This document shows, piece by piece, positions 8,943 to 60,935 of a stretch of DNA of 64,000 nucleotides. Position numbers and translations under genes: made by a program. The stretch is taken from NCBI GenBank assembly GCA_050013395.1, contig JBEKFI010000001.1:1004-65003 (forward strand). The letters are read 5' to 3'. Every line of letters starts with the position of its first letter. The stretch's first letter is position 1. This DNA is from Verrucomicrobiia bacterium (GTDB lineage Bacteria; Verrucomicrobiota; Verrucomicrobiia; Palsa-1439). Under the pieces are notes generated by a model that worked only from the letters and a program-made list of their open reading frames with translations, did not search any database and was not told the DNA's origin.

Positions 8943-10172
8943 TCATTTCTTCTCCTCTATTTGCCGCCGTTTCGCCCAGAACAGCACCGCCATCACTATG
9001 GGGAACCCCCAAATCGGGCCGAGTGCGAGTCGTTTCCAGCGCTCGAACCGCTCCAAGCCCGAGATGTCCGTGAGCGCTTGGTTGAGAATCTCTCCGGAAT
9101 GCGCGGCCACAGGCTTCAGTTGTTGGAGAGAGAGCGTGTGCTGGAGCGCTTCCAGTTGCGTGACCTGCGTCTTGGCTTCCTGCAATGACAGTTGGTCATC
9201 GTCCGTCGCCAGACCACGCACAGTGGCGCCGTGGACTGTGGCGACCGCGTGTTCGTAGGCGCTTTGCTCTTTGCGGATCAGACCGGCCACCGCATCGCGC
9301 ACGCCTAGTTGTTTGGGGTTATTGGCGTGACACTGCACGCAACTCTCATCGAACAACGCGAGCGACGCTTTCTGGATTCCGTGATTGCCGTGGCAACTGA
9401 CGCATTCGCTGAACAACCCGGCTGTGGCCGCCTCTGCGTGAGGGCTTTTCTCGAACAACTCGCGCTGGCGGATGTGGCACTTGCCGCAGACTTGGCCGAC
9501 TTCCTTGGTGCCCGGCGGCGTCGCGCCGTGGTTGCCGTGGCAGGTGACGCAGGTCGGCGCGCTCAGGTCGACCTTCTCGAAGAGTAATTGGGCGTGATAA
9601 CTGGTCTTGTACTGCGTCACGACGTCAGCGGGCAGTTGATACTGCGCCATGAGCTTCGCGTCGCTGTGGCAGCGGCTGCAAGTCTGCGGAACGTTGGTTG
9701 GGTAGGTGCGGCTGGCCGGTGCCTTCGAGGAGAGAATATCGTGTACGCCGTGGCAATCGGTGCAAACGGCCGCGTTCTGGTCGTTGTGCTCGAACAGTTG
9801 CTCGCCGTGCTTGCTGGTCTTGTAACGGTCGAGTTGGTCGGTAGGCAGGCCGTACGGATTCATCCGGCGCACATCGCTGTGACAACTGGCACAGAGTTCA
9901 GCGATGCCGCGTTTGTTATCTGGCCGCTTAAAGTTGTCGGTAGCGTGCGCGGTCTCGTCGTTCACCTTGGGATCGCCGCCGTGGCAATCCACACACGTCA
10001 GCCCGGCCTGCGCGTGCCCGCTTTGCGCATAGAGCCCCTGCTCCTTGCCGTGGCATTTGAGACAAGAGATCTCTGCCGCTGGCGCGGCCATGACGGCAGC
10101 CAGCAACACCAGCGCCACGCCGATCACATCGAGCCGCCGTTGTGGCAGTCGCTGCATTTTTGACCTTTCCAT
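8943..10172 (-). CDS. Multihaem c-type cytochrome (about 9 CxxCH) with C-terminal membrane anchor
   Basis: Nine CxxCH motifs counted in the translation, an N-terminal signal and a C-terminal hydrophobic helix. Confidence 0.8.
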   Translation of the reverse strand: MERSKMQRLPQRRLDVIGVALVLLAAVMAAPAAEISCLKCHGKEQGLYAQSGHAQAGLTCVDCHGGDPKVNDETAHATDNFKRPDNKRGIAELCASCHSDVRRMNPYGLPTDQLDRYKTSKHGEQLFEHNDQNAAVCTDCHGVHDILSSKAPASRTYPTNVPQTCSRCHSDAKLMAQYQLPADVVTQYKTSYHAQLLFEKVDLSAPTCVTCHGNHGATPPGTKEVGQVCGKCHIRQRELFEKSPHAEAATAGLFSECVSCHGNHGIQKASLALFDESCVQCHANNPKQLGVRDAVAGLIRKEQSAYEHAVATVHGATVRGLATDDDQLSLQEAKTQVTQLEALQHTLSLQQLKPVAAHSGEILNQALTDISGLERFERWKRLALGPIWGFPIVMAVLFWAKRRQIEEKK

Positions 10173-11635
10173 GCGTCGGCTAGATCCTCCGACGGATGTT
10201 GAAATTCAAATCCCTGGGCGCTGAGCGTTTTCAAGTCCGTCCCCGCTCCCTGGGCGATAATCGTATGGCAACTGTTGCAGTCAACAGAAATCGTCTTGCC
10301 CTCGGCACTGGCGTGCTGGCCGTCGTGGCACCGGAAACAGCCGGACCATTCAAGGTGGCCAATGTTGTTGGGATAGACCTTCCAGCGCGATTTCATTTCG
10401 GGGAAGAAGTTCGCCTGGTAGATCTTCTGGAGTTCGGCGATGGCGCGCTGGACGGTCGCGGGGTTGGCCGACGCGTACTTCTTCGTCAGCAGGTCGGTGA
10501 TTTTCTGCAGGGCCTCGGTGGTGGTCTGGTACTCGGCGGCCAGCGCGTCGACGGCGTTTTTCTTGATCGAGGGCAACGCCGGATCAATCCGCCCCAACGC
10601 CATCGCGGAGTCCACCGCCTCGTCGGGCGAGCGGAAGATGTGCGTGGGCCGGTTGTGGCAGTCAATGCAGTCCATCCGCCGCACGGATGCGCCGGCCAAC
10701 TGTGCAGGCTTCAGTTTGTTCTCTTTCGCCTCGTACACGGTGGCGTTGCCCTTGGAATCCGTGAAGCGAATCCAAGCGATCTTCTGCCGCGCTTCGTCTG
10801 TCGCGATGTACTCAACCTTGTTGGCGACGTTCATGTGCCAGTGGATGCCGCCGACCGGCCCATGCGTCGGATCGCCGCCGCCCACCTTGAGCAACAGTTC
10901 CACCGTCCACGGGCTGTTCTTCTCGTCGTACTTGAAATGCGTGCTGACCTTTTCGACGGCGCCGTAGAATTTCTGCGGCCAGTGGCATTGTTCGCAGGTC
11001 TCCTGAGCCGGGCGGAGGTTTTTCACAGGGATCGGAATCGGCCGCGGATACTTGTCAAACAGAGTCGCATAGACCTGGTAACTGCCGGACAATTTGGAGC
11101 GCACGAACCACGTCGCACCGGAACCGATATGACATTCCGTGCAGGTGACGCGTGTGTGTGGCGAGTTCTGGTAGGCGGTGAACTCGGGCCGCATCACCGC
11201 GTGACAGGTCCGTCCGCAGAACTGCGTCGATTCGGTGAAATGATAACTGCGATAGCTGCCAATGGCTGTCAGCAGGAAAAATACGACCGCGAATCCGCCC
11301 AAGCTGCCGAGCAGTTTGCGGTGCCGGGGCCGGTTCAGATCGATGATGGGAAACAGTGTCAGTGCGACGCGGCCACGCTGCACCAACCGATGGCGTTCCA
11401 TGATGATGCCGACAACAACCAGAATGAGTCCGGTAATCAAAAAGAAGGGGGCGACGAAGTAGGTCAGGATGCCCATGTACGGATTGCTGAACTGGGCAAA
11501 GAAATCCATCGCCAACAGACAAAGAACAGCGAAAAAACTGCCGGCCGCCACAATCAACCCCAGCAGACTCAGCCAATTGTGAATCAGCGATGGTGCCTTG
11601 GGCGGCCACGGGCTCGTATTTGCGCTGTCATCCAT
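10124..11635 (-). CDS. Membrane-anchored multihaem cytochrome c (NapC/NirT/NrfH-like, about 7 CxxCH)
   Basis: Two N-terminal TM helices followed by seven CxxCH motifs. Confidence 0.75.
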   Translation of the reverse strand: MDDSANTSPWPPKAPSLIHNWLSLLGLIVAAGSFFAVLCLLAMDFFAQFSNPYMGILTYFVAPFFLITGLILVVVGIIMERHRLVQRGRVALTLFPIIDLNRPRHRKLLGSLGGFAVVFFLLTAIGSYRSYHFTESTQFCGRTCHAVMRPEFTAYQNSPHTRVTCTECHIGSGATWFVRSKLSGSYQVYATLFDKYPRPIPIPVKNLRPAQETCEQCHWPQKFYGAVEKVSTHFKYDEKNSPWTVELLLKVGGGDPTHGPVGGIHWHMNVANKVEYIATDEARQKIAWIRFTDSKGNATVYEAKENKLKPAQLAGASVRRMDCIDCHNRPTHIFRSPDEAVDSAMALGRIDPALPSIKKNAVDALAAEYQTTTEALQKITDLLTKKYASANPATVQRAIAELQKIYQANFFPEMKSRWKVYPNNIGHLEWSGCFRCHDGQHASAEGKTISVDCNSCHTIIAQGAGTDLKTLSAQGFEFQHPSEDLADAWKGQKCSDCHNGGSM

Positions 11636-13598: not shown

Positions 13599-14040
13599 AG
13601 AATGACCAGCTTGCCCACTAACAAAGGCTCGTGACGAATGCGAGTTTGGGCGGAGCGCTGACGTGAAGAATGAAGACGGAAGGATGAGGGATGAAGACCG
13701 AGGACGGAAAACTGACGACCGAAACACTTCGTGGGAGCGGCCACGTGAAACGTGCTAAACATTCCTGCCGCGACCGGACAACAATTCTCTCCGAGCAATC
13801 GATATCCCAACCGTCATGCTCGTCAGATACCTAGTAGTACGAGGTATCGCACGCACACAAGCGGTAGATGAACGGAGAGGCATCGGAAGACGCGACGCAG
13901 CCCGATAACGATTTCACGTTTCAAGTTGCCCTCGCTACCTCTAATCATGCTCTCTCAGTCTTCAGAATCGAAGTGCAGCGTTATCGCTGGCGGTGGAGGC
14001 GGGCAACGTGGTACAACATGGGCACGACGGGAAAAAACCG

Positions 14041-16439: not shown

Positions 16440-17053
16440 CAACTTCAACATAATTCGGTTTTGATTTTTTCGATTGTAACTTCGCCATGCGTATCATGCA
16501 ATGGACGATGACTAATAGGAAACTGTTTTTGGAGCGCAGGGGAGCGAGACGGGGTCCGAACAGGGGGGTTATCAAAACGAAAAAGAGAGGCCGGTAACTG
16601 TGATCCTAGAATGTCCTCCGACTCCTGGCCCACGAGGTAACTGTCTCTGCCATGTAGGCGTCGGTGACTAACCGCGTCCATTTCCTCTCCCTGGTCGTGG
16701 TGTATAAACCCCGTGAGGTCGGGACAGCAAGCAGAAAAAGACCAAGAAGACCAAAGCGGGATGACCCGACCGTGCGTTTGCACTGAGGTTTTGGCGGACA
16801 ACTCAGCCGCCTTGAAGAAACCGCCGGGCTGCTTGGAGAAACTCGCGGGCAGTGCGCGGACATCTCGGCGCCATCACCAGCGGAGACACTAACCAATTTT
16901 CGTCGCAGCTTCGTCTGCAATCCGCTATTCGTTTAAGATGTTACCCTGAGTGGAGTGAAGGGTCTCGGTCGTCGGGAGGTTCGGAAACGGCAGAGATTTG
17001 CCGTCACACGACGGACGGCCCGCAGCGGTTTCGCCCGCCACTGGGGGATCAGA

Positions 17054-19645
17054 ATGACAAACAGTAGACAAGTTGCGGCCCGGTCCAATGGACGACTCAT
17101 CATCTTGGCAGTCGGCGCGCTCGGTTTCTCTTCCGTCATTACGCAGTTGGCGTTAATGCGGGAGATGCTGGGAGCGTTTGCGGGCAACGAGATGGCGTTG
17201 GGAATCATTCTCGGCAACTGGCTGCTGTTGACGGGAATCGGCGCGTGGCTCGGCCGGACCAGCAACCGTCTCCGCAATCCACGACTCTTGCTCGTACTCT
17301 TACTCTTGCTCGTCGCTCTCCTGCCGCTGGCGCAGGTGTATCTGCTTCGAACATTGCGCGATGTGGTGTTCGTCCGGGGCGCATTGGTCGGCGTGACTGA
17401 GACGATCCTGGCAAGTTTTGTCCTGTTGTTGCCTTACTGCATCGTGTCCGGATTTCTGCTGACGCTGGCGTGCGCGATTGTGGGAGCGGCGTCCCCGCCG
17501 CGATGTGTAGGGGCCGGTCGCGGCGGGGACGCCGCTCCCACGAGTACAGAGGAAATTGGGGCGTCCGGTATTGGCCGGGTGTATGTCGCGGACAGCGTCG
17601 GCAGCATTGCCGGTGGTGTGCTGTTCAGCTTCGTCCTCGTCCGATGGTTGGATCATTTCGCCATGCTGTATCTGCCGGCCCTGCTGAATCTCATGATGGC
17701 GGGAGTTCTGGCGTGGAACTACAGTGGCGACGAACGAATTGTTGGCCGCGAAGCCGAAGACGCCGCTCGTCGTGAAGCGGCAAAGGCACAAGAAGACGCA
17801 AAAGGAAGCATTGCCTCTTCCGTTTTTGCGACACTTTGCGCCTTTTTGCGGCAATTGATCTGTCGTCGATGGTTGCTCGTTTGTGTTGTGACGGTCATCA
17901 CGCTGGCGGTAGTGGCACTGATGTTCCTCACCGACATGGATGCAGTTTCGACGGCGCGGCAGTTTGCGGGACAGAAGATTGTTTTCAGGAAGAATTCGCC
18001 TTACGGCAAGCTCATCGTGACGGAATCGGCGGGACAATTCAACTTCATCGAGAACGGCCTGCCGATCATCTCGACGCACAACGTCGAGCAGGTGGAAGAA
18101 ACCGTTCACTACGCCATGGCGCAGCGGCCCGACGCGCGCAAGGTGTTGCTGGTGTCGGGCGGCGTGTCGGGAACGGCGAAAGAAATCCTGAAGTACGGTG
18201 TGAGCGAGGTGACCTACGTGGAACTCGACCCGCTCATCATCGAGGCGGGACGGAAGTACCTGCCGGACAGCCTGGCCGACCCGCGGATCAAGGTGGTCAA
18301 CACGGATGGACGGCTGTTTGTGAGAGAGGTAGGGCGCGACCGCCGGGCGCGCCGTGGTCCCGACGAAAGCGGGCGGCCCGGCGGTCCGCCCCTACCGGAA
18401 GTGGGTTGCGATGTGGTGATTGTGGACGTGCTTGCGCCGTCCACATCGCAGATCAACCGGTTCTATACCGCCGAGTTTTTCGGCGAGGTCAAACTAATAT
18501 TGACGCCGGGCGGCGTGCTTTCTCTGTCGCTGGGGCGTTACGAAAACTACGTCAGCAAAGAACTGGCACGAATGCTGGCATCGGCTCATGCGACGTTGAG
18601 GCAATCGTTCCGAAACGTGCTCGTGATTCCGGGCGGACGCGTTTTCTTTCTGGCATCGGATGGCGAACTCTTTCCTGATATTGCGGCACGAATCGAGCAA
18701 CGGCGCATCCCGACGCAGTTGGTGAATCGGCATTACCTCGATGCGATGTTGACGCCCGACCGGATAAGCGATCTGCAGCGGGCGATGGCGCAAACTGCAG
18801 CCGTGAACAGGGATTTCAGCCCGGTCTTATACTATTACCATTTGATGCACTGGATGAGCCAGTTCAAGGTCAGGTTCGGTGTTCTGGAGACGGCGTTGCT
18901 GGTCGCGCTCGCGGTTTATCTGTTCACGATTCGTCCGGTGCCGCTGGCAATCTTCGTGTCGGGATTAGCGGCGTCGGCGCTTGAGGTCGTGTTGTTGCTC
19001 GGTTTCCAGATTCTTTACGGCTCGGTCTATGGGCAATTGGGAATCATCGTCACGATGTTCATGGCAGGGTTGGCGGTCGGAGCGTGGGTGGGAAACCGGG
19101 GCCTGATGCGCAACGACACGAACCCTCACCCTGGCCCCCGGTCGCCTCTGGCGCCGCCTACGGCGGGTAAACCTCTCCCTTCGCGGAAGGGAGAGGGAAA
19201 TTTCTCTCCCACGTCATCGGGGGAGAGGATCAAGGTGAGGGGGCAAGCTGTTCATACCGGAGATTGGGAGGCGATGCGTCTTTTGGCCGTGCTCGCCTTC
19301 GCCATTGCCGGGTTGTCGGTGCTGGTGCCGCTGGTGTTGATGGCGCTGGGACGACTGGGCGGGACGACAACCGGCCTTGTGACGGTGCGGGTGGTGATTG
19401 CTTTGTTGACGTTTGTTCTGGCAATGTTGGTCGGCATGGAGTTTCCAGTCGCTTCTCAAGTGGAGTTTGTCGGTCGTGCCGCCACTGCGTCGCGGTTGTA
19501 CACGGCCGATTTCGTCGGCGCATCTCTGGGTGCGTTGCTGGCGAGCACGTTTCTGATTCCGTTGATCGGCGTGACGGCGGTGTGTCTGCTGACGGCGGGA
19601 CTGAACGTCATCGGCGGAGCGGTCGTTTTGTTGAGAAGACAATAG
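17054..19645 (+). CDS. Spermidine-synthase-like aminopropyltransferase with N- and C-terminal polytopic membrane domains, carrying three in-frame repeat insertions
   Basis: VLLVSGGVSGTAKE...VVIVDV...GGVLSLSLG methyltransferase fold flanked by many TM helices. Confidence 0.75.
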   Translation: MTNSRQVAARSNGRLIILAVGALGFSSVITQLALMREMLGAFAGNEMALGIILGNWLLLTGIGAWLGRTSNRLRNPRLLLVLLLLLVALLPLAQVYLLRTLRDVVFVRGALVGVTETILASFVLLLPYCIVSGFLLTLACAIVGAASPPRCVGAGRGGDAAPTSTEEIGASGIGRVYVADSVGSIAGGVLFSFVLVRWLDHFAMLYLPALLNLMMAGVLAWNYSGDERIVGREAEDAARREAAKAQEDAKGSIASSVFATLCAFLRQLICRRWLLVCVVTVITLAVVALMFLTDMDAVSTARQFAGQKIVFRKNSPYGKLIVTESAGQFNFIENGLPIISTHNVEQVEETVHYAMAQRPDARKVLLVSGGVSGTAKEILKYGVSEVTYVELDPLIIEAGRKYLPDSLADPRIKVVNTDGRLFVREVGRDRRARRGPDESGRPGGPPLPEVGCDVVIVDVLAPSTSQINRFYTAEFFGEVKLILTPGGVLSLSLGRYENYVSKELARMLASAHATLRQSFRNVLVIPGGRVFFLASDGELFPDIAARIEQRRIPTQLVNRHYLDAMLTPDRISDLQRAMAQTAAVNRDFSPVLYYYHLMHWMSQFKVRFGVLETALLVALAVYLFTIRPVPLAIFVSGLAASALEVVLLLGFQILYGSVYGQLGIIVTMFMAGLAVGAWVGNRGLMRNDTNPHPGPRSPLAPPTAGKPLPSRKGEGNFSPTSSGERIKVRGQAVHTGDWEAMRLLAVLAFAIAGLSVLVPLVLMALGRLGGTTTGLVTVRVVIALLTFVLAMLVGMEFPVASQVEFVGRAATASRLYTADFVGASLGALLASTFLIPLIGVTAVCLLTAGLNVIGGAVVLLRRQ
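17481..17540. repeat. Perfect 23-bp inverted repeat with 14-nt loop (60 bp) inside the CDS
   Basis: tgggagcggcgtccccgccgcga / tcgcggcggggacgccgctccca; the length is a multiple of 3. Confidence 0.7.
18328..18396. repeat. GGTAGGGCGCGACC...GGTCCGCCCCTACC palindromic element, 69 bp, in-frame in the CDS
   Basis: Same family as 60779-60848; partial copies at 49338-49376 and 54046-54060. Confidence 0.75.
19140..19244. repeat. Composite NPHP/GEG/GERIKVRG hairpin repeat, 105 bp, in-frame in the CDS
   Basis: gaaccctcaccctgg...cctctcccttcgcggaagggagaggg...ctcccacgtcatcgggggagaggatcaaggtgaggggg. The same modules flank the DUF559 genes. Confidence 0.75.
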
Positions 19646-30411: not shown

Positions 30412-30921
30412 TCAACTTCCTTTCGTGTTCACGTTGGAACCTGATTGTCCCCTCTCCCTTGCGACGCAAGGGAGAGGGTCAGGGTGAGGGTTCCCCGCCG
30501 TCCGTGATTCCAATTCGATCAAGGTCGCGGCCAGCACGCCTTCTTCGTTGTCGTTAAGCTGAAAATTCCAGAAACGTAGCACACGCACCCCCCTGCTTCT
30601 CACGTACGCGTCCATGTTGGTGTCCGCTTCCTTGCGCTGCGGCGCGCCGTGTACATCGCCGTCCAGTTCCACAGCAAACTTCGCCGCGGCGCAGTAGAAA
30701 ACCCGAGACGTAAGGACCGAGCGGATGCTGGCGCCGAAACTTGAAAGCTGCAAACCGCCGATTTCGTAGGAGCCGCCAAAGCCATTGTTCGGCCAAGGTG
30801 GCGTTTCGCCGTAGAGAACGGGCACGAATCGTCGAGGAATTCGGGACATCCCCCTCACCTTGATCCCGCTCTGAGCGGGATTGATCCTCTCCCCCGTGCA
30901 TCGGGGGAGAGGAGACACCAA
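30412..30921 (-). pseudogene. Frameshifted DUF559 endonuclease-domain gene flanked by NPHP/GERIKVRG hairpin repeats, inserted between cydA and cydB
   Basis: The C-terminal half AAAKFAVELDGDVHG...VRVLRFWNFQLNDNEEGVLAATLIEL matches the 59109-59729 paralogue. The N-terminal motif WLWRLLRNRRFAAFKFRRQHPLGPYV is in another frame. Repeats at 30449-30493 and 30850-30915. Confidence 0.65.
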
Positions 30922-30960
30922 GTGCGCGCGCAGGGTGATGGAATGCCTCTAAGTTCTTCT

Positions 30961-32388
30961 TCATTTCTTGTCCTCGGTCAGCGAGGCGCCGCCCGTACCG
31001 GCGCGCAGGCCGGCGACTCCGAGCAACGCGCTCGGTGACGTTGCGGCGGGAATAGCCTCGACCGGCTCCGGGCCGTGCTTGATCCTGCCATCCAAGACAT
31101 ACACCCAAACAGCAAACAGCATGACGTAGATCAGGAGGAAGACGATGATCGAACCGACGACCTGATCCGCGACAATCGCTTTCGACACCGCGTCGCTCGT
31201 GCGCAGCATGCCGTACACGACCCACGGCTGCCGCCCGACCTCCGCCGTCACCCAACCGAGTTGATTGGCGATGTACGGCAGAGGCACGGCGAATACAAAC
31301 ACCCACATCAACCAGCGCTTGGCGAACAACGTTCCGCGCCAACGCAGGCAGGTTGCGAAGAGCGTGATGACGATGAAAAAGATTCCCAGCCACACCATGC
31401 TGTGAAACGAGTGGAACGTCACCGTCACGGGCGGCCAATCTGTGCGCGGGATTTTGTCCAGACCATTGACAGGCTCGCGGAAGTTGCCGTGCACCAGGAA
31501 GCTCAACAGACCTGGAATTGCCAAACCGTGTTCGACTCTTCGCTCGTTCTCGCCGGGCAGCCCGAAAACATACAGTGGCGACGGCCCTGTTCCCGTTTCG
31601 AAGCGCGCCTCCATCGCCGCCAATTTGGCTGGCTGCGTGACCGCAACCTTCTTCGCCTGCAAGTCGCCTTGGACAAGCGCCGCCAGCGACATCACGGTGG
31701 CCAAGGTCAACGCGGAATGGAAACTCTTCTTCGCGAACTCGACGTGTCGTTCCCTCAGAAGGTAATACGCCGAAACACTCATCACGAAGAACGCGCCGAG
31801 GATGTACGCGCCGATCCACACGTGCAGCAGCCGGGGCACACTCGACGGATTGAACACCATCGGCCAGAAGTCGGTGATCTCGGCTCGTGCGCTCGCGCCC
31901 GAGCCGACGATGTGAAAGCCCGCAGGCGTCTGCTGCCACGAGTTGGCCACCACGATCCAGACGGACGAAAAGAGCGCACCGAGCGCCACCATGCAGGTCG
32001 AGAAGAAATGCATTTGTTTTGAGACCTTGTCCCAACCGAATACGAGCACGGCCAGGAAGCCCGATTCGAGGAAGAACGCGAAGATGCCTTCCGCCGCCAA
32101 GGCCGAGCCGAAGATATCGCCCACGTACCGCGAGTAGGTCGCCCAGTTCGTTCCGAACTGAAATTCCATGACGATGCCTGTGGCGACGCCGACGGCGAAG
32201 TTGATGGCGAAAATCTTGGTCCAGAATCTTGCCGCCTCCTCGTACTGGCGATCACCGCTTCTGAGATATTTCCACTCCAACGAAACGAGCAGGCCGCCGA
32301 TGCCGATCGTCAGCGGCGGGAACAGGTAGTGGAACATGATTGTCAGCGCAAACTGGATGCGTGATAAAGTGACAACGTCGAATTGCAT
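30961..32388 (-). CDS. cydA: Cytochrome bd ubiquinol oxidase subunit I
   Basis: [29 protein letters not shown]; Q-loop region. Confidence 0.9.
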
Positions 32389-35767: not shown

Positions 35768-35852
35768 CGAACCCTCACCCTGACCCTCTCCCTTGCACTG
35801 CAAGGGAGAGGGGATTCACTCCTCCGAAAAACAGCTTTCGGAGGAGGATCAA
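35768..35852. repeat. Composite hairpin repeat (NPHPDPLP / CCCTCTCCCTTGCACTGCAAGGGAGAGGG / CGAAAAACAGCTTTCGG)
   Basis: Same modules as at 30449, 51483, 54085 and 59512. Confidence 0.7.
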
Positions 35853-35921
35853 GAGCCTGTCCTGAGCTTGTCGAAGGATGAGGGGCCGCATCAACAAATC
35901 TTCGTTCACGAATGGCTCAGG

Positions 35922-51450: not shown

Positions 51451-51482
51451 TTTATTCATGAATTCTCTCCTGTTACGCTGGC

Positions 51483-51590
51483 CCCTCACCTTGATCCTCT
51501 CCCCGTCAACCCCGAAAGCTTTCGGGGCAAGGCCGGGGAGAGGAGGTTTCCCCTCTCCCTTTCAAAGGGAGAGGGTCAGGGTGAGGGTTG
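51483..51590. repeat. Composite hairpin repeat (GERIKVRG-type, CCCCGAAAGCTTTCGGGG, CCCTCTCCCTTTCAAAGGGAGAGGG, GGTGAGGGTTG)
   Basis: Three repeat modules in tandem between nfnA and nfnB. Confidence 0.7.
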
Positions 51591-53459: not shown

Positions 53460-54028
53460 CAACCATCCGGGAAACAATCAAATACGACGCCGAACGCGAC
53501 CGCAATTTCCCCAAGGAGATCATGGCGCGTCATGGCTGCGAAAAACTCTATGGGTGCATCCAGTGCGGAACGTGCTCGGCGACCTGTCCGGTCAGTAGTT
53601 ACATGGATCACACGCCACGACAATTGATGGCGTTGACGCGGGCGGGGTTCAAGAAGGAAGTCCTCAGCAGCCTGACAATCTGGCTCTGCGCCTCCTGCTA
53701 CGCTTGCACGGTGGATTGCCCCAAGGAAATCAAGATCACCGATATCATGTACGCACTAAAGCGCCGGGCGATTGAGGAGGGCGTCTATCCGAAACGGTTC
53801 CCGATCCCGATACTGGCGCGCGAGTTCTTCAAGATGGTGAAGAACCGAGGCCGCATCACCGAGAACGAGCTCGCCATGCGCATGTTTCTGCAATCGAACT
53901 GGTTCGCCATGATGAAGACGTGGCGGCTCGGCCTGAACCTGATGCGCACCGGCCGATTCCCCATAAAACCTGAATCGATGGCAAAGCCTGAGAAGCTCGC
54001 GTCGCTCTTCCAAGGAGGCCCGCGATGA
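53456..54028 (+). CDS. hdrC: Heterodisulfide reductase subunit C
   Basis: Two CxxCxxCxxxCP ferredoxin-like motifs. Confidence 0.8.
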   Translation: MTTIRETIKYDAERDRNFPKEIMARHGCEKLYGCIQCGTCSATCPVSSYMDHTPRQLMALTRAGFKKEVLSSLTIWLCASCYACTVDCPKEIKITDIMYALKRRAIEEGVYPKRFPIPILAREFFKMVKNRGRITENELAMRMFLQSNWFAMMKTWRLGLNLMRTGRFPIKPESMAKPEKLASLFQGGPR

Positions 54029-54045
54029 ATTCCGTGACGTCGTTG

Positions 54046-54200
54046 GTAGGGCGCGACAGCGTGAAGCGCAGTTGCGATCCCCTCTCCCTCGTGAGGGAGA
54101 GGGTCAGGGTGAGGGTGCCGGCTGCGTTGCGAGAACACCCCCTCACCTCAGTCCTCTCCCCGAGCGCGTCAGCGCCTCGGGGCGATGAGGAGGTTTCTGA
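54046..54200. repeat. Hairpin repeats (partial GGTAGGGCGCGAC, CCCTCTCCCTCGTGAGGGAGAGGG, GTGAGGG, PLTSVLSPS module)
   Basis: Several repeat modules between hdrC and hdrB. Confidence 0.65.
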
Positions 54201-54203
54201 ACC

Positions 54204-55076
54204 ATGAAATTCACCTATTTCCCCGGCTGTTCACTGAAAGGCTCCGGCCGCGCCTACGAGGAATCGCTGTTGGCGGTCTGCAAACAGCTCGGCGTCGAAC
54301 TGGAGGAATTGGACGACTGGAACTGCTGCGGCGCGACCGCTTACATGGCGGTCAGCGAACGCCAGGCCTTCGGGCTGGCCGCGCGCAATCTCGCGCTGGC
54401 GGAACAACAGCCGCACGAACTGCTCGCGCCGTGCAGCGCCTGTTATATGGTGCTGAAGAAAACCCAGAAGTACGTCGCCGAGTATCCGCTGATTGGGCAA
54501 GAGGTGCACGACGCGCTCAACAGGTGCGGACTCAAGTACGCCGGCACGGCCGGAGTCCGTCATCCGCTCGATGTATTGGTCAACGACATCGGCCTCGATG
54601 CGATCAAGAAGCAGGTCAAGATGCCGCTCAAAGGCTTCAAGGTCGCACCGTACTACGGCTGCCAGATCGTGCGGCCATACGCGGACTTCGACGACCAGCA
54701 CAACCCGGTGCTCATGGACAAGCTATTCAAAGCGCTCGGCGCTGAAGTGGTGAAATACCCGCTGAAGACGCGGTGCTGCGGCGGCAGTCTGACCGGTACG
54801 TTGCCGGAAGCCGGTCTGGGACTGAGTTTCCATCTCTTGCGGGAAGCGCAACGCCGTGGCGCGAACGTGCTGGCGACGGTCTGCCCGCTCTGCCAGTTCA
54901 ACCTCGACGCCTACCAGAGGGACATGTCCAGCAAGTACGAGCCGGTGCACATGCCCATCGTTTATTTCACACAGTTGATGGGTTTGGCGTTCGGGTTGGA
55001 CGCGAAAACGCTGGGTCTGCATCGCGGCATTATTTCCATTGAACCGCTATTGAATAAACAAGAGGTAGCAGCATGA
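54204..55076 (+). CDS. hdrB: Heterodisulfide reductase subunit B (two CCG domains)
   Basis: MKFTYFPGCS...CCG motifs. Confidence 0.85.
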   Translation: MKFTYFPGCSLKGSGRAYEESLLAVCKQLGVELEELDDWNCCGATAYMAVSERQAFGLAARNLALAEQQPHELLAPCSACYMVLKKTQKYVAEYPLIGQEVHDALNRCGLKYAGTAGVRHPLDVLVNDIGLDAIKKQVKMPLKGFKVAPYYGCQIVRPYADFDDQHNPVLMDKLFKALGAEVVKYPLKTRCCGGSLTGTLPEAGLGLSFHLLREAQRRGANVLATVCPLCQFNLDAYQRDMSSKYEPVHMPIVYFTQLMGLAFGLDAKTLGLHRGIISIEPLLNKQEVAA

Positions 55077-57061
55077 AAGAGCAATCCGACGGCGACATTC
55101 GCATCGGGTGTTACGTCTGCCATTGCGGCACGAACATAGCCGGGGTGATCAACGTTAAGGCGGTGACAGAGTACGCCGCCAAACTGCCGTGCGTGGTTGT
55201 GTCACGCGACTACAAGTACATGTGCTCCGATCCGGGCCAGGCGCTGATCCAGCAGGACATCAAGGACCATAAGTTGAACCGCGTCGTCGTCGCGTCGTGC
55301 TCACCACTGTTGCACGAGCGCACCTTCCGCAATGCCTTGGAAGGCGGCGGGCTGAATCCGTTCTGTCTCCAGATGGTCAACATCCGCGAGCATGACTCGT
55401 GGGTGCACGAACCGGGCAAACCAGCGACCGAAAAGGCGCGGGCGTTGGTGCGCGCCGCGATCAAGCGCGTTGCGTTGCACAAACCGCTGGAGAAGAAGGA
55501 GACCAAGATTCATCGCGATGTGCTGGTGGTCGGCGGCGGCATTGCCGGGATTCACGCGTCTCTGACTCTGGCCAACGGCGGCATGACCGTTTACCTCGTC
55601 GAACGCGAGGCGACGATCGGCGGGCACATGGCGAAGTTCGACAAGACGTTCCCGACGCTCGACTGCGCAGCGTGCATTCTTACGCCGAAGATGTCGGCCG
55701 TCGGCGAGAACCCGAACATCAAGCTGTGGACCTACTCAGAAGTCGTGAAGGTCGAGGGCTACGTCGGCAACTACAAGGTGACGGTGAAACGCAAGCCGCG
55801 ATATATTATCGAGGATTTGTGCGTCGGCTGCATGAAATGCGTCGAGGCGTGCGTGTACAAGGAGGGAAAGACCGAGGACGACTTCAACGAAGGTCTCTCC
55901 AAGCGCAAACCCGTGTACATGCCGTTCCCGCAGGCGACGCCGTTTTTGGTGCTGTTTGATCCGGAAGCCTGCATCCAGCTCAAGACGGGCAAATGCAAGA
56001 AGACCTGCGTCGAGGTGTGCGATCGCAAGGCGATCAAGTTCGACCAAAAGGAAGAACTTGTCGAGATCAACGTCGGCACGATCATTCTCGCCACTGGTTT
56101 CCAGACGTTCGACGGGAAACGTTTGCCGCAATACGGCTACGGCGTGCATCCAAACGTGTTCTCCGCGATGCAAGTCGAACGCATGGTCAATGCCAGCGGC
56201 CCGACCGAAGGCCACATCACATTGAAGGACGGCGGCAAACCGAAGGCGGTCGGTATCATCCACTGCGTCGGCTCGCGCGACAACCGCACCAACCGCTGGT
56301 GTTCGCGCGTCTGCTGCATGTACTCGATGAAGCTCGCCCACCTTATCAAGCAGCACACTGATGCCGAGGTGTTCAACTTCTACATCGATATCCGCGCGCC
56401 CGGCAAAGGATACGAGGAGTTTTACGAGCGGTTGCAGGAGGAAGGTGTCCATTTCATCCGCGGCCGCGTCGCCGAAGTCACCGACTGGGCGGCGAGGAAA
56501 GAGGAGGAAGGCAGACTCGTGATCCGCGTCGAGGACACGCTTGCCGGTTTCGTTCGGCGTATCCCGGTTGACATGGTTGTTCTGGCGAACGGTCTCGAAC
56601 CGCAAGCCGACTCCCAGGATGTGCGGCGGATGTTCAACATCAGTTGCTCGACCGAAGGCTGGTTCCTGGAGCGCCACCCGAAACTCGCGCCCGTGAACAC
56701 CTTCACCGACGGCATTTTCCTGGCCGGTTGCTGTCAAGGCCCGAAAGACATCCCCGACACGGTCGCCCAAGCGGGTGCGGCCGCGGCGGAGGCGTATGCG
56801 TTGATCAACGCCGGCGTAATCGAGCTTGAACCGAATACGAGCTACGTCGTGGCTGACGATTGCAGCGGATGCAAGACCTGCATCCCGCTTTGCCCGTACA
56901 CGGCGATCAGCCGCGACGAGGTGAAAAAGAAGGCCGTCATCAACGAGGCGTTGTGCAAAGGTTGCGGCGTATGCGTCGCGGCCTGCCCGAGCGGGTCGAT
57001 TTACCAGAACCTGTTCAGCGACGAAGAAATCTTCAGCGAAATCGAAGCGGTCATCGGATGA
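55073..57061 (+). CDS. hdrA: Heterodisulfide reductase subunit A (FAD, multiple [4Fe-4S])
   Basis: VLVVGGGIAGIHAS FAD fold; several Cys clusters. Confidence 0.9.
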   Translation: MKEQSDGDIRIGCYVCHCGTNIAGVINVKAVTEYAAKLPCVVVSRDYKYMCSDPGQALIQQDIKDHKLNRVVVASCSPLLHERTFRNALEGGGLNPFCLQMVNIREHDSWVHEPGKPATEKARALVRAAIKRVALHKPLEKKETKIHRDVLVVGGGIAGIHASLTLANGGMTVYLVEREATIGGHMAKFDKTFPTLDCAACILTPKMSAVGENPNIKLWTYSEVVKVEGYVGNYKVTVKRKPRYIIEDLCVGCMKCVEACVYKEGKTEDDFNEGLSKRKPVYMPFPQATPFLVLFDPEACIQLKTGKCKKTCVEVCDRKAIKFDQKEELVEINVGTIILATGFQTFDGKRLPQYGYGVHPNVFSAMQVERMVNASGPTEGHITLKDGGKPKAVGIIHCVGSRDNRTNRWCSRVCCMYSMKLAHLIKQHTDAEVFNFYIDIRAPGKGYEEFYERLQEEGVHFIRGRVAEVTDWAARKEEEGRLVIRVEDTLAGFVRRIPVDMVVLANGLEPQADSQDVRRMFNISCSTEGWFLERHPKLAPVNTFTDGIFLAGCCQGPKDIPDTVAQAGAAAAEAYALINAGVIELEPNTSYVVADDCSGCKTCIPLCPYTAISRDEVKKKAVINEALCKGCGVCVAACPSGSIYQNLFSDEEIFSEIEAVIG

Positions 57062-58560
57062 GGAAAATCCGAAATCCGAATATCGAAATCCGAAATGAGC
57101 ACGAAGCCCAAATGACAAAACGCGGCAAACAACGGCAGATGAAACCGCAGATGAACACAGATGGACGCGGATTCACAACCTCAGGTTGTCATTCTGAGCG
57201 AAGCAAAGAATCTCAGTCGTCAGGGCATGGTGGCGCGGGCGTCTCGCCTGCGGTTGTTCCAAGCCGGAAAGGAGACTCGAGATGAATGCGTCCGAGTCAG
57301 GCAACCGTAAGAGTCAAGAGTTGCCCCGAGCAACGACGAGGGGGACATGCTAGACGCGGTCAAATGCCGGATTCTTGGTCACGTGCGAGGGGCTGAATAT
57401 GACCGCACTTCCAAATGCGACAGATGTCATACGATGTTGCCAGACCCGGACAAACTTCGAGAAGTCATCAGGAAACCGCCGAATGACGAGGTTCGTAACC
57501 AAGCCATTGCACTATATAAACAGATTGTTTGTGAAGCACCGTATTCCGCGGGTTGCCCTCAGTGTTCGAAGGCGATCAGTGTTTTACGCTTCTTGGTGAC
57601 GGAGGTGACTCGTTGTAAGCACTGTGGCGCAACAATGGTGTTCCTTGAATGCGGATTCCATGATTACGTAGATGCCCTTCCAATTGAAGAAAAGCTCTCG
57701 GATTTCTATCGGGGATTGATTTCTGCAATCCAAGAAATGAGGCGAGAGGAAGATGTAGAGCACGATGGGACTCGCCTCCGTATCGTACCGGCTGATGTCG
57801 TTCAAGCGGTTCAGACGAGAAATGAGGAAGCGCTACTTCGATATCTCGATGTCCATACCGAACTTGAATGGGATCGAAGTCCATTTGGAGAACTCCAAGA
57901 CTTCACACCATTTGACAAAGGCGCGATGATCCGAGCTGTGGCGGCAAGAGAACTCGGGAGATTAAGGTCGCACAGAGGCGTTGATCAATTGAACGCGATA
58001 TTGTTCAACGATCCCAATGCGGAGGTCAAGCGAAGCGCGGCGATTGCTCTAGGCGAAATAAACTACTACCCCGCCGCCTCCGCTCTCATCGCGGCTCTGC
58101 GAAACTGCTCGGAGGATGTTGGTGTCCGAATAATGGCTGCATTAGCGCTTGGTCAGTACTGCGATGAGGAGAGCGAGGCAGCGTTGAAGGCATGTCTTCC
58201 TGCAACTGGCGTCAAAGAAAACGGCGCTCGGGCCAAACTACGCGCTGCAATAGTAGCTGCTCTGAAGTCGCGCGGTGTCGCAAGTGCCGGCATACTCAAG
58301 ATTTGACTAAATGAATGGGTTAACTTCTGACACATGACAATGATACACACAGCCGCAAGCCGGGACGCTTGCACTGCCATGACAACGACGAAACGACAGA
58401 GATGCTTCGACAAGCTCAGCATGACAGTGGTGAGGAATCCGCGTCCATCCGCGTTCATCTGCGGCTTCACCGGCCGTTGTTTCGGTCATTTGAGTTTTCG
58501 TCATTCGGGTTTGTTTCGGATTTCGAATTTCGTGCTTCGGATTTCGCGGCGGCTCGCCGC
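57062..58560. mobile_element. About 1.5-kb non-autonomous element with ~140-bp imperfect inverted terminal repeats carrying one low-GC passenger gene
   Basis: The left terminal repeat (57062-57200) and the reverse complement of the right one (58395-58560) share cgaaatccgaa...gcacgaa...caaatgac...gcagatgaac.cagatggacgcggattc...gtcat.ctgagc...gaagca. The 57200-58300 interior is visibly more AT-rich. Confidence 0.6.
57347..58306 (+). CDS. Passenger gene: N-terminal Cys-rich zinc-ribbon-like region plus C-terminal HEAT (PBS-lyase-type) repeats
   Basis: CxxC...CxxC...CxxC pattern; repeats AEVKRSAAIALGEI and EDVGVRIMAALALGQY. Confidence 0.55.
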   Translation: MLDAVKCRILGHVRGAEYDRTSKCDRCHTMLPDPDKLREVIRKPPNDEVRNQAIALYKQIVCEAPYSAGCPQCSKAISVLRFLVTEVTRCKHCGATMVFLECGFHDYVDALPIEEKLSDFYRGLISAIQEMRREEDVEHDGTRLRIVPADVVQAVQTRNEEALLRYLDVHTELEWDRSPFGELQDFTPFDKGAMIRAVAARELGRLRSHRGVDQLNAILFNDPNAEVKRSAAIALGEINYYPAASALIAALRNCSEDVGVRIMAALALGQYCDEESEAALKACLPATGVKENGARAKLRAAIVAALKSRGVASAGILKI

Positions 58561-58572
58561 TGAGGAGAATAA

Positions 58573-59112
58573 ATGATAAATCAAACCACCGTACAACCCC
58601 AACCTGCCACCAGCACCGCCGCGTTTGAGCCGCGCATCGTCGCGTTCTTCTGCAACTGGTGCACCTACACCGCCGCGGACCTGGCCGGCGTGTCGCGCAT
58701 GAAATACGCGCCCAACGTTCGCATCATCCGCCTGATGTGCTCAGGCCGGCTGGATCCGCAATTCATCATGGCCGCGTTCGCGAAGGGCGCGGACGGCGTG
58801 CTCATCGGCGGCTGCCACCCCGGCGACTGCCACTACGTCGAGGGCAATTATAAGACGCTCCGCCGGATGGATCTCCTGAAGCGGATGTTGAAAGACCTCG
58901 GCATCGAGGAAGACCGCGTCCGCCTCGAATGGATCAGCGCCAGTGAAGGCGACAAGGTCAAGTGGGCCGTCAACGATATTGTCGAGAAAGTCCGTGCGCT
59001 TGGCCCGTTGAACATGCCCGGGAAATTCAAGGATTGGGACAAGGAGATTGAGGAGCTGGCCGGGGAAGTTCAGGCCCAGGATAAAGAGCAAGCACCGGCA
59101 CACGTCGCATGA
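58573..59112 (+). CDS. mvhD: Methyl-viologen-reducing hydrogenase delta subunit
   Basis: FCNWCTY...LMCSGR...GGCHPGDCHY motifs. Confidence 0.85.
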   Translation: MINQTTVQPQPATSTAAFEPRIVAFFCNWCTYTAADLAGVSRMKYAPNVRIIRLMCSGRLDPQFIMAAFAKGADGVLIGGCHPGDCHYVEGNYKTLRRMDLLKRMLKDLGIEEDRVRLEWISASEGDKVKWAVNDIVEKVRALGPLNMPGKFKDWDKEIEELAGEVQAQDKEQAPAHVA

Positions 59113-59729
59113 ACCACGGAATTCACAGGGATCTGTCTCCTCTCCCCCGTCGTACGGGGGAGAGGATCAAGGTGAGGGGGATGGCCAGAGCGCTCCGCCG
59201 CGAGCCGACTTGGGCCGAACGGACACTGTGGCGTCATCTGCGAAATCACCGTTTCTGCGCGTACAAGTTCCGCCGTCAGCATCCCAACGGTCCATACGTA
59301 TTGGACTTCTACTGTGTGTCGGCGAAGCTGGCCATCGAGTTAGATGGTGATCCTCATGGGTATCCAAACCAGAAGAATCACGATGAGTCAAAGGATCGTT
59401 ACCTCGCTCAGCAGGGCATTCGCGTTCTGCGGTTCTGGAACGATGACCTGAGAGAAAACAAAGACGGCGTGCTGGTGACAATTCTGCAAGAACTCGAACA
59501 GCGAACGGAGGAGAACCCTCACCCTGACCCTCTCCCTTACGCTACAAGGGAGAGGGGAGACAATTTGAAGGAGAACCCTCACCCTGACCCCTGGTCGCCC
59601 CTGGCCGCCTCCGGCGCCGCCAAAGGCGGGCAAGCTTTGGCGCCCCGCTGCTGCGGGGGTAACCCTCTCCCTTCCACTGCAAGGGAAAGGGGAAACAATT
59701 TGAAGGAGATCGCGAACTATGTCCACTAA
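59109..59729 (+). CDS. DUF559 endonuclease-domain protein (Vsr-like fold), flanked by NPHP/GERIKVRG hairpin repeats
   Basis: WRHLRNHRFCAYKFRRQHPNGPYVLDFYC...ELDGDPH...VLRFWN. The repeat-derived N-terminus (SPLPRRTGERIKVRG) and C-terminus (NPHPDPLP x3) suggest the native start is near 59184. Confidence 0.7.
   Translation: MNHGIHRDLSPLPRRTGERIKVRGMARALRREPTWAERTLWRHLRNHRFCAYKFRRQHPNGPYVLDFYCVSAKLAIELDGDPHGYPNQKNHDESKDRYLAQQGIRVLRFWNDDLRENKDGVLVTILQELEQRTEENPHPDPLPYATRERGDNLKENPHPDPWSPLAASGAAKGGQALAPRCCGGNPLPSTARERGNNLKEIANYVH
59512..59700. repeat. Three tandem NPHPDPLP/GEG hairpin repeat units at the 3' end of the DUF559 gene
   Basis: gagaaccctcaccctgaccc occurs twice, with ctctcccttacgctacaagggagagggg and ctctcccttccactgcaagggaaagggg hairpins. 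Confidence 0.7.
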
Positions 59730-60720
59730 ACCGAAAATCGCTTTTTATTGGTGTGCGTCTTGCGGCGGTTGCGAAGAATCCGTCGTCGACCTCGCTGAGG
59801 ACATTCTCATGGTGCTCGATGCCGTGGACATCGTGTTGTGGCCCGTCGCGATGGATTTCAAGAAGAAGGACGTCGAGGCGATGCCTGACAAATCCATCGT
59901 GGCGACCTTGCTCAACGGTGCGATCCGTACTTCCGAACAAGAAGAGATGGTGCGCTTGTTGCGCCGCAAAAGCCAGTATCTCATCGCTTACGGTTCCTGC
60001 GCCCACACCGGTGGCATTCCTAGCCTCGCCAATCAGTTCAGCCGCGAGCAAATTATGAAGTACGTCTACGAGGAAGCGCCCACGGTGGTGAACCCCGACA
60101 ACGCAAGCGCTGTCGGGGCAGGCGCTTTGAAGACGCGGCCGGTAACGGAGTTCCGGGACAACGGCCACACTGCCACACTGCCCGTGTTTCGCAACGTGGT
60201 TCGCGCGCTCGACCAGGTGGTGGAGGTGGACTACTACATCCCCGGCTGTCCGCCCACGCCGAAACTGTTGAAAGAGGCAGTGCTGGCGTTGCTCGCGGGC
60301 AAACTGCCGCCGAAAGGCAGCGTGCTCGCCCCCGACATGGCTCTGTGCGAGCAATGCCCGCGCATTGACAGCAAACCGCAGGACCTGAGCCTCACCGAGT
60401 TCAAGCGTCCGCACCAAGTCATCATTGACCCCGACAAATGCCTGCTGGCTCAGGGCCTCGTCTGTATGGGCCCGGCCACGCGGGGCGGCTGCGAAGCGCG
60501 CTGCATCACGGGCAATATGCCGTGCACCGGCTGTTTCGGTCCAACCAGCCGCGTCCAGGACCACGGCGCAAAAATCCTGAGCTATTTGGCCTCAACCGCA
60601 GCCGGCAAAGAAGACAAGGAGATCGAAAAGATATTGGCCGGGATCCCTGATCCTGTCGGCACATTTTATCGTTACGGTTTGGCGAAGTGCCTCCTACGCG
60701 GCCGCGTGGGCGGCCCGTAG
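59719..60720 (+). CDS. mvhG: [NiFe]-hydrogenase small subunit (F420-non-reducing, Mvh-type)
   Basis: FYWCASCGGCEES...GCPP motifs. Confidence 0.85.
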   Translation: MSTKPKIAFYWCASCGGCEESVVDLAEDILMVLDAVDIVLWPVAMDFKKKDVEAMPDKSIVATLLNGAIRTSEQEEMVRLLRRKSQYLIAYGSCAHTGGIPSLANQFSREQIMKYVYEEAPTVVNPDNASAVGAGALKTRPVTEFRDNGHTATLPVFRNVVRALDQVVEVDYYIPGCPPTPKLLKEAVLALLAGKLPPKGSVLAPDMALCEQCPRIDSKPQDLSLTEFKRPHQVIIDPDKCLLAQGLVCMGPATRGGCEARCITGNMPCTGCFGPTSRVQDHGAKILSYLASTAAGKEDKEIEKILAGIPDPVGTFYRYGLAKCLLRGRVGGP

Positions 60721-60935
60721 GAAATCCGAAACCCGAAACAAGCACGAATGACCAAAGTAGCAACGACCAAGACGCGTGGTAGGGCGCGACCGCCGGGCGC
60801 GCCGCTCTTCACAACGGCTTCGGACGGCCCGGCGGTCCGTCCCTATCGTCTCGCGCCTTGTTTGGAGCATTTCCGTCATTCGAATTTCGGATTTGTTTCG
60901 TGCTTCGAATTTCGGATTTCGAGTTTTCCTCTCAT
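60721..60935. mobile_element. MITE-like element: short inverted repeats of the GAAATCCGAAA family flanking a GGTAGGGCGCGACC palindrome
   Basis: Left arm gaaatccgaaacccgaaacaagcacgaatgac; right arm is the reverse complement of cgaaatccgaaattcgaagcacgaaacaaatccgaaattcgaatgac; palindrome core 60779-60848. Confidence 0.6.

Follow-up and report, generated by a model that had tools for sequence, protein, structure and literature searches.

EDxHD/Vsr-like homing endonucleases such as I-Bth0305I (3R3P) and the free-standing homing genes of phages lie between or within conserved genes, are patchily present at an identical site and occur in intact, decaying and lost states. The DUF559, Vsr and I-Bth0305I nucleases have been placed in one PD-(D/E)XK clade (PMC3424549; PMC3239194). 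The present work concerns a small DUF559 gene enclosed by hairpin repeats (the cassette) in a stretch of 64,000 nucleotides from a Verrucomicrobiia bacterium (Palsa-1439; assembly GCA_050013395.1, contig JBEKFI010000001.1, positions 1,004 to 65,003), referred to below as the window. An intact copy occupies the junction of the mvhD and mvhG genes and a second copy lies between cydA and cydB. The analysis favours, with moderate confidence, a compact selfish cassette of ~0.45–0.6 kb, in which one nuclease gene of the Vsr/EDxHD fold is carried between inverted ~40-nt units and spread in a homing-like manner. The cassette looks like an undescribed kind of selfish DNA.

The cassette shares its catalytic fold and the conserved E..D..H..D motif with the EDxHD homing endonucleases, I-Bth0305I being its second-best structural match. 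Unlike them, it contains no intron, intein or NUMOD/helix–turn–helix DNA-binding domain, its protein has just ~111–130 aa, and conserved inverted hairpin repeats enclose it, a feature absent from homing endonuclease genes. It also differs from phage homing genes in being chromosomal in diverse bacteria. Repetitive extragenic palindromic (REP) sequences and their doublets (REPINs), together with the REP-associated tyrosine transposases (RAYTs), likewise consist of a single gene amid inverted short palindromic units dispersed as doublets able to form long hairpins. However, the cassette enzyme is a PD-(D/E)XK nuclease and not an HUH/Y1 transposase, the doublets appear sparse in most genomes, the gene itself appears mobile and can sit inside open reading frames (ORFs), and the core of the arm is shared between phyla and not confined to one lineage. 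An IS200/605-type model with an HUH/Y1 transposase was rejected, DUF559 being the only gene present.

Rickettsia palindromic elements and other bacterial MITEs (miniature inverted-repeat transposable elements) also place palindromic units in frame within genes, where they are translated, as is the case here in ORF 16955..19645 of the window and in a methylase gene of locus L060. These elements are gene-less; here a nuclease gene lies between the arms, and the cassette can be in frame over its entire ~170–240 aa. Inteins with homing endonucleases resemble the cassette in carrying an in-frame nuclease in housekeeping genes (MetH and HrpA in our set), but the intein model was rejected, as Pfam revealed only DUF559 and host domains, and no Hint/splicing domain, in the in-frame hosts (MetH, HrpA and methylases); the insertion is presumably retained in the mature protein. 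An integron cassette (IntI, arrays, an attC GTTRRRY core) was rejected because the cassettes are single and scattered, have no integrase in the gene-called or annotated loci examined and carry CCCTCACC / GGTGAGGG boxes. A DDE insertion sequence or MITE is disfavoured, as 56 cassettes gave no general target-site duplication. NGO0050 of Neisseria gonorrhoeae (3HRL) and YcjD of E. coli are true members of the family, the latter showing a presence/absence polymorphism that alternates with eefRABCD, but E. coli ycjD does not have the upstream arm. No description of a gene-plus-palindrome cassette was found in the searchable literature (DUF559, COG2852, ycjD, Vsr-like/REP, EDxHD), which leaves most subscription journals outside its coverage.

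The intact cassette at the mvhD/mvhG junction

The cassette ORF matches the Pfam DUF559 profile (PF04480) at aa 23–130 with an E-value of 4.7e-36 and a score of 123 bits (cut-off 20.6), and DUF559 is its sole Pfam domain. It belongs to an operon with HdrA/B/C-like genes upstream and a NiFe large-subunit gene downstream of mvhG. The features of the locus are as follows.

58573..59112, + strand: mvhD-like gene (FlpD), upstream host (Pfam PF02662, E 1.6e-55); its TGA overlaps the cassette ATG (59109-59111) as ATGA
59109..59729, + strand: cassette ORF of 206 aa; it opens on the mvhD stop, takes in the left arm, the DUF559 core and both right-arm units, and ends 11 nt within mvhG
59138..59180, + strand: left arm, hairpin CTCCTCTCCCCCG-TCGTA-CGGGGGAGAGGA (59138-59166) plus R box TCAAGGTGAGGGGG; fold z = -3.73; identical in L004 and L005
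59181..59513, + strand: DUF559 nuclease core, 111 aa from MARALRR..., with invariant E53, D55, H59 and D68, supported by an AlphaFold2 model and Foldseek; dN/dS 0.19 versus L004
59509..59568, + strand: first right-arm unit of 60 bp, L box AACCCTCACCCTGACC plus hairpin CTCTCCCTT..AAGGGAGAG; absent from two otherwise identical assemblies, present in L004
59574..59705, + strand: second right-arm unit, with an L box, nested GC-rich hairpins, a terminal hairpin and a GAAGGAG Shine-Dalgarno-like sequence before mvhG
59719..60720, + strand: mvhG-like small hydrogenase subunit, downstream host (Oxidored_q6, Pfam PF01058), overlapped by the final 11 nt of the cassette ORF

ORF, profile match and sequence thus agree with the initial annotation, which had reported an intact DUF559 gene between mvhD and mvhG with an ATGA overlap. 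The stop of the 206-aa ORF is the codon that terminates mvhD in relatives with an empty site (...YVH* compared with ...AHVH* in L088). The same mvh cassette is present in a near-identical 62-kb contig and in a contig of the Joint Genome Institute (JGI), the sole difference being one 60-bp repeat unit; this unit (59509-59568) is the only indel between the window and L001/L002, which are 99.9–100% identical elsewhere. Because the unit is also present in L004, its absence from L001 and L002 probably reflects a deletion between 22-nt direct repeats or a collapse during short-read assembly. An exact look-up of the 206-aa ORF returned no record, since the other assemblies do not have this unit.

The second copy between cydA and cydB

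The second copy lies between cydA (30961..32388) and cydB (true ATG at 30409), its stop being located 2 nt ahead of the cydB ATG.

30412..30964, - strand: second cassette, with left arm 30913-30850, a DUF559 core with one +1 frameshift and right arm 30492-30446

The DUF559 hidden Markov model (HMM) was matched in two frames, at profile positions 4–48 and 47–131. An ATG at 30964, which forms an ATGA overlap with the stop of cydA, already stands in the frame of the N-terminal half, so one frameshift, +1 nt in a GGGTTTT run, is enough. The copy had been described as doubly frameshifted; its position between cydA and cydB held, whereas a single +1 explains the reading frame and two would be needed only if translation started in the GERIKVRG frame. 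The cassette sequence was identical in an independent second assembly. The frameshift is situated near 30700 (- strand) in GGGTTTTCTA, at UUU-CUA, where tRNA-Phe could re-pair +1 (UUC) before the possibly rare CUA. It may mark a pseudogene or a programmed +1 frameshift, which are indistinguishable from the sequence.

In the left arm of this copy (30885-30850, - strand), a 21-nt mini-hairpin TCCCGCTCAGAGCGGGA is nested between duplicated GATCAA, and nested hairpins resembling it are also found at 59590-59660 and 19135-19170. The duplicated GATCAA suggests that small palindromes insert into, or grow inside, the arms.

One inverted repeat unit encloses the gene

Both window copies are bracketed by one repeat unit in inverted orientation, with a hairpin and GGTGAGGG upstream and CCCTCACC and a hairpin downstream. 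The upstream hairpin CTCCTCTCCCCCG..CGGGGGAGAGGA is followed by TCAAGGTGAGGGGG in both copies, and downstream AACCCTCACCCTGACC is followed by the hairpin CTCTCCCTT..AAGGGAGAG. The two modules are mutually reverse-complementary (TCAAGGTGAGGG / CCCTCACCCTGA), and the gene is therefore enclosed by inverted copies of a single ~40-nt unit, composed of a C-rich box CCCTCACC and a GC-rich hairpin. The 23-mer AACCCTCACCCTGACCCTCTCCC occurs five times and the 25-mer GGGGGAGAGGATCAAGGTGAGGGGG three times in the window, with 0 expected for each. The hairpins had fold z-scores from -3.7 to -7.4, except for the long downstream unit with nested hairpins (59570-59705, z = -1.96). These recurrences and folds bear out the earlier statement that the same hairpin modules flank both copies, and the units are indeed translated as part of the ORF ends, the 206-aa ORF spanning the left arm and both right-arm units. 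The hairpin is read in differing frames in the two copies, which places the conservation at the DNA level and not at the peptide level; the C-termini of homologues vary accordingly between NPHPDPLP, NPSP-stop and PHPLPDY.

A known RNA family was rejected as the identity of the arms, since the window had no Rfam match at gathering thresholds and 58900-59900 gave chance-level matches only. Pairing of the arms at the RNA level, as in a fold-back control of the nuclease mRNA, was also unsupported: the arm mismatches, 90 sense-compatible, 75 antisense-compatible and 141 transversions, showed no G.U strand bias. The purine-rich arm strand GGGAGAGGG-NN-GGGGTGAGGG, present in many loci (e.g. L012, L029, L053, L060), contains four G-runs, which may in principle form a G-quadruplex competing with the hairpin.

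The same architecture in other phyla

A genome scan yielded 80 DUF559 loci from Verrucomicrobiota, Alpha-, Beta- and Gammaproteobacteria, Chloroflexota, Acidobacteriota, Planctomycetota and other phyla. Their upstream flanks were aligned to the reverse complement of the downstream flanks, and 708 ORFs were scored in the same way as controls. The median flank score was 38.5 for the DUF559 loci and 16 for the controls (Mann–Whitney p = 4e-32), with 61 of 74 loci (82%) above the 95th and 74% above the 99th control percentile. Of 76 loci, 40 had exact GGTGAGGG within 150 nt upstream and 36 had exact CCCTCACC within 170 nt downstream, at ~0.004 expected per flank in each case, and the exact 8-mer cores were ~100-fold enriched in DUF559 flanks. 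Common flanking repeats are thus carried by DUF559 genes elsewhere as well. The arm measures ~40 nt and the cassette ~510 bp, and the minimal arm–gene–arm form was seen in 20 of 35 scorable cassettes. Among R..L motif pairs 251–2000 nt apart, 38 enclosed DUF559 and 8 nothing recognisable; L..R pairs 61–250 nt apart formed 33 gene-less doublets in the loci.

Away from the cassettes extra arm copies were sparse (0.3 per 10 kb): dispersed doublets are found several times in the window, and no further copy was present within ~14 kb in 45 of 56 other loci. DUF559 itself recurred just twice more in 1.18 Mb of loci. A single DUF559 query retrieved over 4,000 homologues with E-values under 1e-10. The gene was rare both in plasmid records (39 of 72,556) and in phage records (2 of 50,697). 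No transposase or integrase gene was linked to the cassettes in the gene-called or annotated loci examined. The check for a target-site duplication gave no general one, as direct-repeat scores outside the arms equalled those of shuffled controls in 56 cassettes and only the mvh site showed a degenerate duplication of ~20 bp.

Empty sites and carriers at the mvhD/mvhG junction

A metagenome scan with mvhG provided 80 relatives of 68–92% identity. Neither DUF559 nor its arms were present at the mvhD–mvhG junction in any of the 80 loci; orthologous operons of relatives thus lack a gene at this position. In the empty loci, mvhD and mvhG mostly overlap or are closely adjacent, as in L088, where the overlap of 11 nt reads ATGTCCACTAA. 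The empty-site sequence is known for L088 and L089, and an L088-type junction reads ...GCGCATGTCCACTAAACC...; the ancestral junction is an overlap of 11 nt. The left mvh junction of the cassette is a degenerate copy, ~20 bp long, of this target. Some empty loci contain unrelated repeats at the junction: in L087, L131, L148 and L149 it is occupied by repeat types found in other spacers of the window's hdr–mvh operon instead of by DUF559 arms.

Two further lineages have the cassette at the identical junction, with matching overlaps and arms, one comprising L004 and four more contigs (93% protein identity) and the other L005 (70%). At this one precise site, presence is therefore patchy among close relatives (3 carriers, 80 empty), and gene and arms are jointly present or jointly absent. 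In the mvhG tree, the three carriers fall into two clades amid empty relatives. L087 has kept both junction remnants with the cassette gone, which indicates a secondary loss. Comparison of the window with L004 gave a dN/dS (nonsynonymous to synonymous substitution rate ratio) of 0.19 and a dS of 0.21 for DUF559, with a dS of 0.21 for mvhD and 0.29 for mvhG; the protein has therefore been maintained under selection, diverging in step with its flanks. Purifying selection acts on intact copies, and at least one copy appears to be in decay. The occupancy of the site calls for either one old gain followed by several precise losses or gains that recurred at the same nucleotide. The former is slightly favoured, the derived ATGAACC left junction being common to both carrier clades.

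New neighbourhoods and insertions inside host genes

Among DUF559 proteins from different species, 215 pairs reached at least 70% aa identity, and only 10 of these shared any flanking similarity within 3 kb. In eight non-syntenic Verrucomicrobiae loci (85–92% aa identity) the alignment was confined to the repeat–gene–repeat block, so that near-identical proteins kept their arms next to different neighbours, and arm similarity tracked protein identity (rho 0.34, p = 8e-43). Locus L083 holds two cassettes 3.3 kb apart (10001-10315 and 13614-13949), each behind a paralogous gene. The 5' halves of these cassettes are ~100% identical and their flanks ~80%, the similarity ending at the outer edge of the right arm. 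This mosaic, the one hint of nuclease-dependent copying, fits recent gene conversion between the paralogous sites, or copying from one of them to the other.

Cassettes were in frame within long host ORFs in at least nine of the 80 loci. In MetH of the isolate Stagnimonas aquatica the cassette lies between the B12-binding and activation domains, and in HrpA between the two helicase domains, both insertions having the arm–gene–arm form. Further in-frame hosts identified by Pfam were Eco57I/MmeI-type methylases and an HMGL-like enzyme. HsdM (L054), whose ORF runs off the contig end downstream, is a likely case beyond the nine. The 1481-aa Eco57I/MmeI-type methylase ORF of L060 (9074-13519) includes a DUF559 cassette and at least eight more in-frame repeat units; a 39-nt tandem triplet is located at 10374-10490 of this ORF.

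In the lineage of the window, close homologues with the same arms were found between potA-like ATPase and permease genes in two genomes (L006, L172) and between DUF362 and Fer4_5 genes in three samples, the latter with 4-nt overlaps on both sides. The lineage thus has four distinct gene-carrying sites (mvhD|G, cydA|B, potA|permease, DUF362|Fer4) and a gene-less one (hdrC|hdrB), and all five are co-directional, tightly coupled junctions. In the multi-phylum loci, both neighbours were co-directional for 43% of cassettes compared with 42% in the background, and a division by arm-to-start spacing left very few tight cases.

These distributions bear on earlier proposals. That gene and repeats move as a block is supported by their co-occurrence at the mvh site, by the arms that near-identical proteins keep in new neighbourhoods and by the arm–gene–arm insertions in MetH and HrpA, and comparison shows gene and arms being gained, kept and lost together. 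Tolerance of insertion between co-transcribed genes is supported by the four tight intra-operon sites and the gene-less hdrC|hdrB element. A general rule that the sites are always intergenic within operons, a point earlier put up for checking, did not hold, given the background-level co-directionality and the cassettes inside genes.

The nuclease protein

The cassette protein belongs to the DUF559/Vsr-EDxHD branch of PD-(D/E)XK nucleases. The AlphaFold2 model of its core had a pLDDT (predicted local distance difference test) of 87.7, and Foldseek matched it to 3HRL (NGO0050; E 2e-7) and 3R3P (I-Bth0305I; E 2e-4), its nearest folds with template modelling (TM) scores of 0.66–0.73, as well as to 1VSR; the profile match to 3HRL reached E 1e-30. 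The sole solved structure of a close DUF559 relative is, to our knowledge, a structural-genomics product. E53, D55, H59 and D68 were invariant in 34 homologues and may be assigned to catalysis by analogy (PMC3239194).

E. coli ycjD (locus L073) was considered as a population test and dropped, the variation there being a larger structural polymorphism of ycjD versus the eefRABCD efflux operon. In the sapF–fabI interval, ycjD is present exactly where eefRABCD is absent (PMC12817139). The ycjD query interval was covered to at least 80% in 3374 of 5426 complete E. coli genomes, and the flank score of ycjD was 16. A 41-nt stretch downstream of ycjD was also matched outside sapF–fabI in one listed genome, the query matching a median of 4 places per genome.

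Gene-less forms and other repeats of the window

Four stretches of the window contain the arm family without the nuclease gene.

54025..54207, + strand: gene-less cassette form, [hairpin-R]-20 nt-[L-hairpin], forming a 60-aa bridge ORF with ATGA overlaps with the hdrC-like and hdrB-like genes
19118..19245, + strand: solo doublet [L-hairpin][hairpin-R] without a nuclease gene, in frame within the 896-aa ORF 16955..19645
35770..35890, + strand: solo doublet of the same repeat family, intergenic
51481..51590, - strand: solo doublet of the same repeat family, with an L:R stem closing two hairpins; z = -7.36

A search for decayed DUF559 beside the solo doublets of the window gave HMM matches to the repeat-encoded tail only. 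The 896-aa ORF (+ strand) encodes a membrane protein and apparently contains one more in-frame repeat, from a different family (...GRDRRARRGPDESGRPGGPP...). Spacers of the hdr–mvh operon (57060-57340, 58330-58560 and 60720-60930) are filled by at least three further families of repeats, of the 'aatccgcgtccatccgcgttcatctgcggc', 'ttcggatttcgaatttcg' and 'gaccgccgggcgcgccgctc' types. A repeat-flanked HEAT-repeat gene (57347-58306, + strand) lies between the hdrA-like gene and mvhD; in a relative carrying P0002, mvhD follows hdrA directly, with a gap of 122 nt and no HEAT-repeat gene between them. The HEAT-repeat gene looks like another insertion into the hdr–mvh operon.

Proposed mechanism and alternative explanations

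In the favoured reading, a homing-like selfish cassette lands, in this lineage, at tightly coupled gene junctions, where a reading frame would begin on the upstream stop (ATGA), continue across the arms and reach the downstream start. Since the frame is continuous through the arms, ribosomes would unwind the hairpins and the translational coupling of the operon would be preserved, so that insertions into operons would be tolerated. Inside genes, only in-frame, interdomain insertions would survive. The nuclease would break or nick a cognate empty site or a gene-less repeat, and the cassette would be copied in through recombinational repair, the conserved arms serving as cis sites for the protein that the element itself encodes. 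It is possible, and proposed here tentatively, that DUF559 cassettes at large constitute an unrecognised, phylum-spanning minimal mobile element of ~0.5 kb with palindromic ends, whose only gene encodes a Vsr/EDxHD-fold nuclease that recognises its own arms, with break-induced copying, and persistence by read-through as a bridge ORF or as an unspliced in-frame domain of essential proteins such as MetH and HrpA. It would then amount to a homing element with neither intein nor intron.

Several points weigh against the favoured reading. Mobility is deduced from distribution only, and the mvh occupancy could be explained without repeated site-specific gains, by one old gain and several precise losses. 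Plasmids and phages almost entirely lack the cassette, which leaves no transfer vehicle in evidence, and the two window copies are ~44% identical across the full ORF and therefore give no sign of recent copying within the genome. The absence of a general target-site duplication fits homing and proves nothing, and homing by itself does not explain the conservation of the arms across phyla. The idea of arms designed to be stop-free was also unsupported, as they were no more stop-free than shuffled sequence (open frames 0.68 vs 0.71). We know of no cleavage activity or target reported for the small proteins of the DUF559 family. Moreover, a Caulobacter DUF559 protein acts as a host Vsr-like factor (PMC12907096).

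This last protein, VsrA, is induced by the SOS response and has a functional link to a cytosine methylase; in the only functional study found, it caused SOS-inducing damage once the methylase was missing (PMC12907096). It lends some weight to an explanation in which DUF559 serves the host in repair or defence, as a Vsr-like endonuclease directed at mismatches or dependent on modification, and the palindromes are regulatory, terminator-like or independent REP-like repeats that gather beside it. Low chromosomal copy number, the dN/dS of 0.19 and the several DNA methylases among the in-frame hosts agree with this explanation, which is nevertheless unlikely, as it does not account for in-frame insertion into MetH, HrpA and the HMGL enzyme, absence from 80 of 80 related mvh loci, non-synteny of near-identical genes and the precise arm–gene–arm geometry; the arms also had no Rfam match and no G.U bias of the kind expected for regulatory pairing of RNA. 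Similarly improbable is a REP/RAYT-like arrangement, in which a domesticated DUF559 maintains or spreads repeat doublets in trans and is flanked by its own substrate. It would suit a gene enclosed by inverted copies of a unit that also exists gene-less (the 33 doublets of the loci, four doublets or gene-less forms in the window), the 60-bp unit varying between near-identical assemblies, the many extra units in the L060 methylase gene and the purifying selection on the mvh copy. However, strand transfer by a PD-(D/E)XK nuclease alone is not known, and most loci have no further arm copy nearby. RAYTs are typically single-copy and vertically inherited, whereas the DUF559 gene is patchy and inserted within host ORFs, and both window copies, diverged from one another, have the same arms.

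The terminal inverted repeats of ~40 nt and the gene-less derivatives, together with in-frame repeat units in genes as in Rickettsia palindromic elements and other bacterial MITEs (PMC10969869), would also be compatible with a MITE-like passenger, moved by a transposase encoded elsewhere that mobilises anything between the arms and has DUF559 as mere cargo. This appears least probable, since DUF559, in constant orientation to the arms, is the sole recurrent cargo across phyla (38 pairs against 8), no target-site duplication was found and no cassette-linked transposase gene was present in the gene-called or annotated loci.

Significance

The pattern is strong, general and apparently undescribed, and suggests a homing-endonuclease-like selfish gene with MITE-like ends. 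DUF559 is among the large uncharacterised nuclease families. If its members are self-propagating cassettes that carry terminal palindromes of their own, this would explain the patchy, multi-copy distribution of DUF559, the odd Pro/Gly-rich tails in DUF559 annotations and many apparent DUF559 "fusions" to methylases, helicases and metabolic enzymes. Repeat-encoded extensions and bridge ORFs annotated as proteins would also be flagged as a systematic artefact. The family would then supply small nucleases whose DNA partner, the arm sequence, can be predicted, which would make their specificity directly testable. Selfish DNA would have, in such cassettes, a new way to inhabit operons and genes without an intron or intein.

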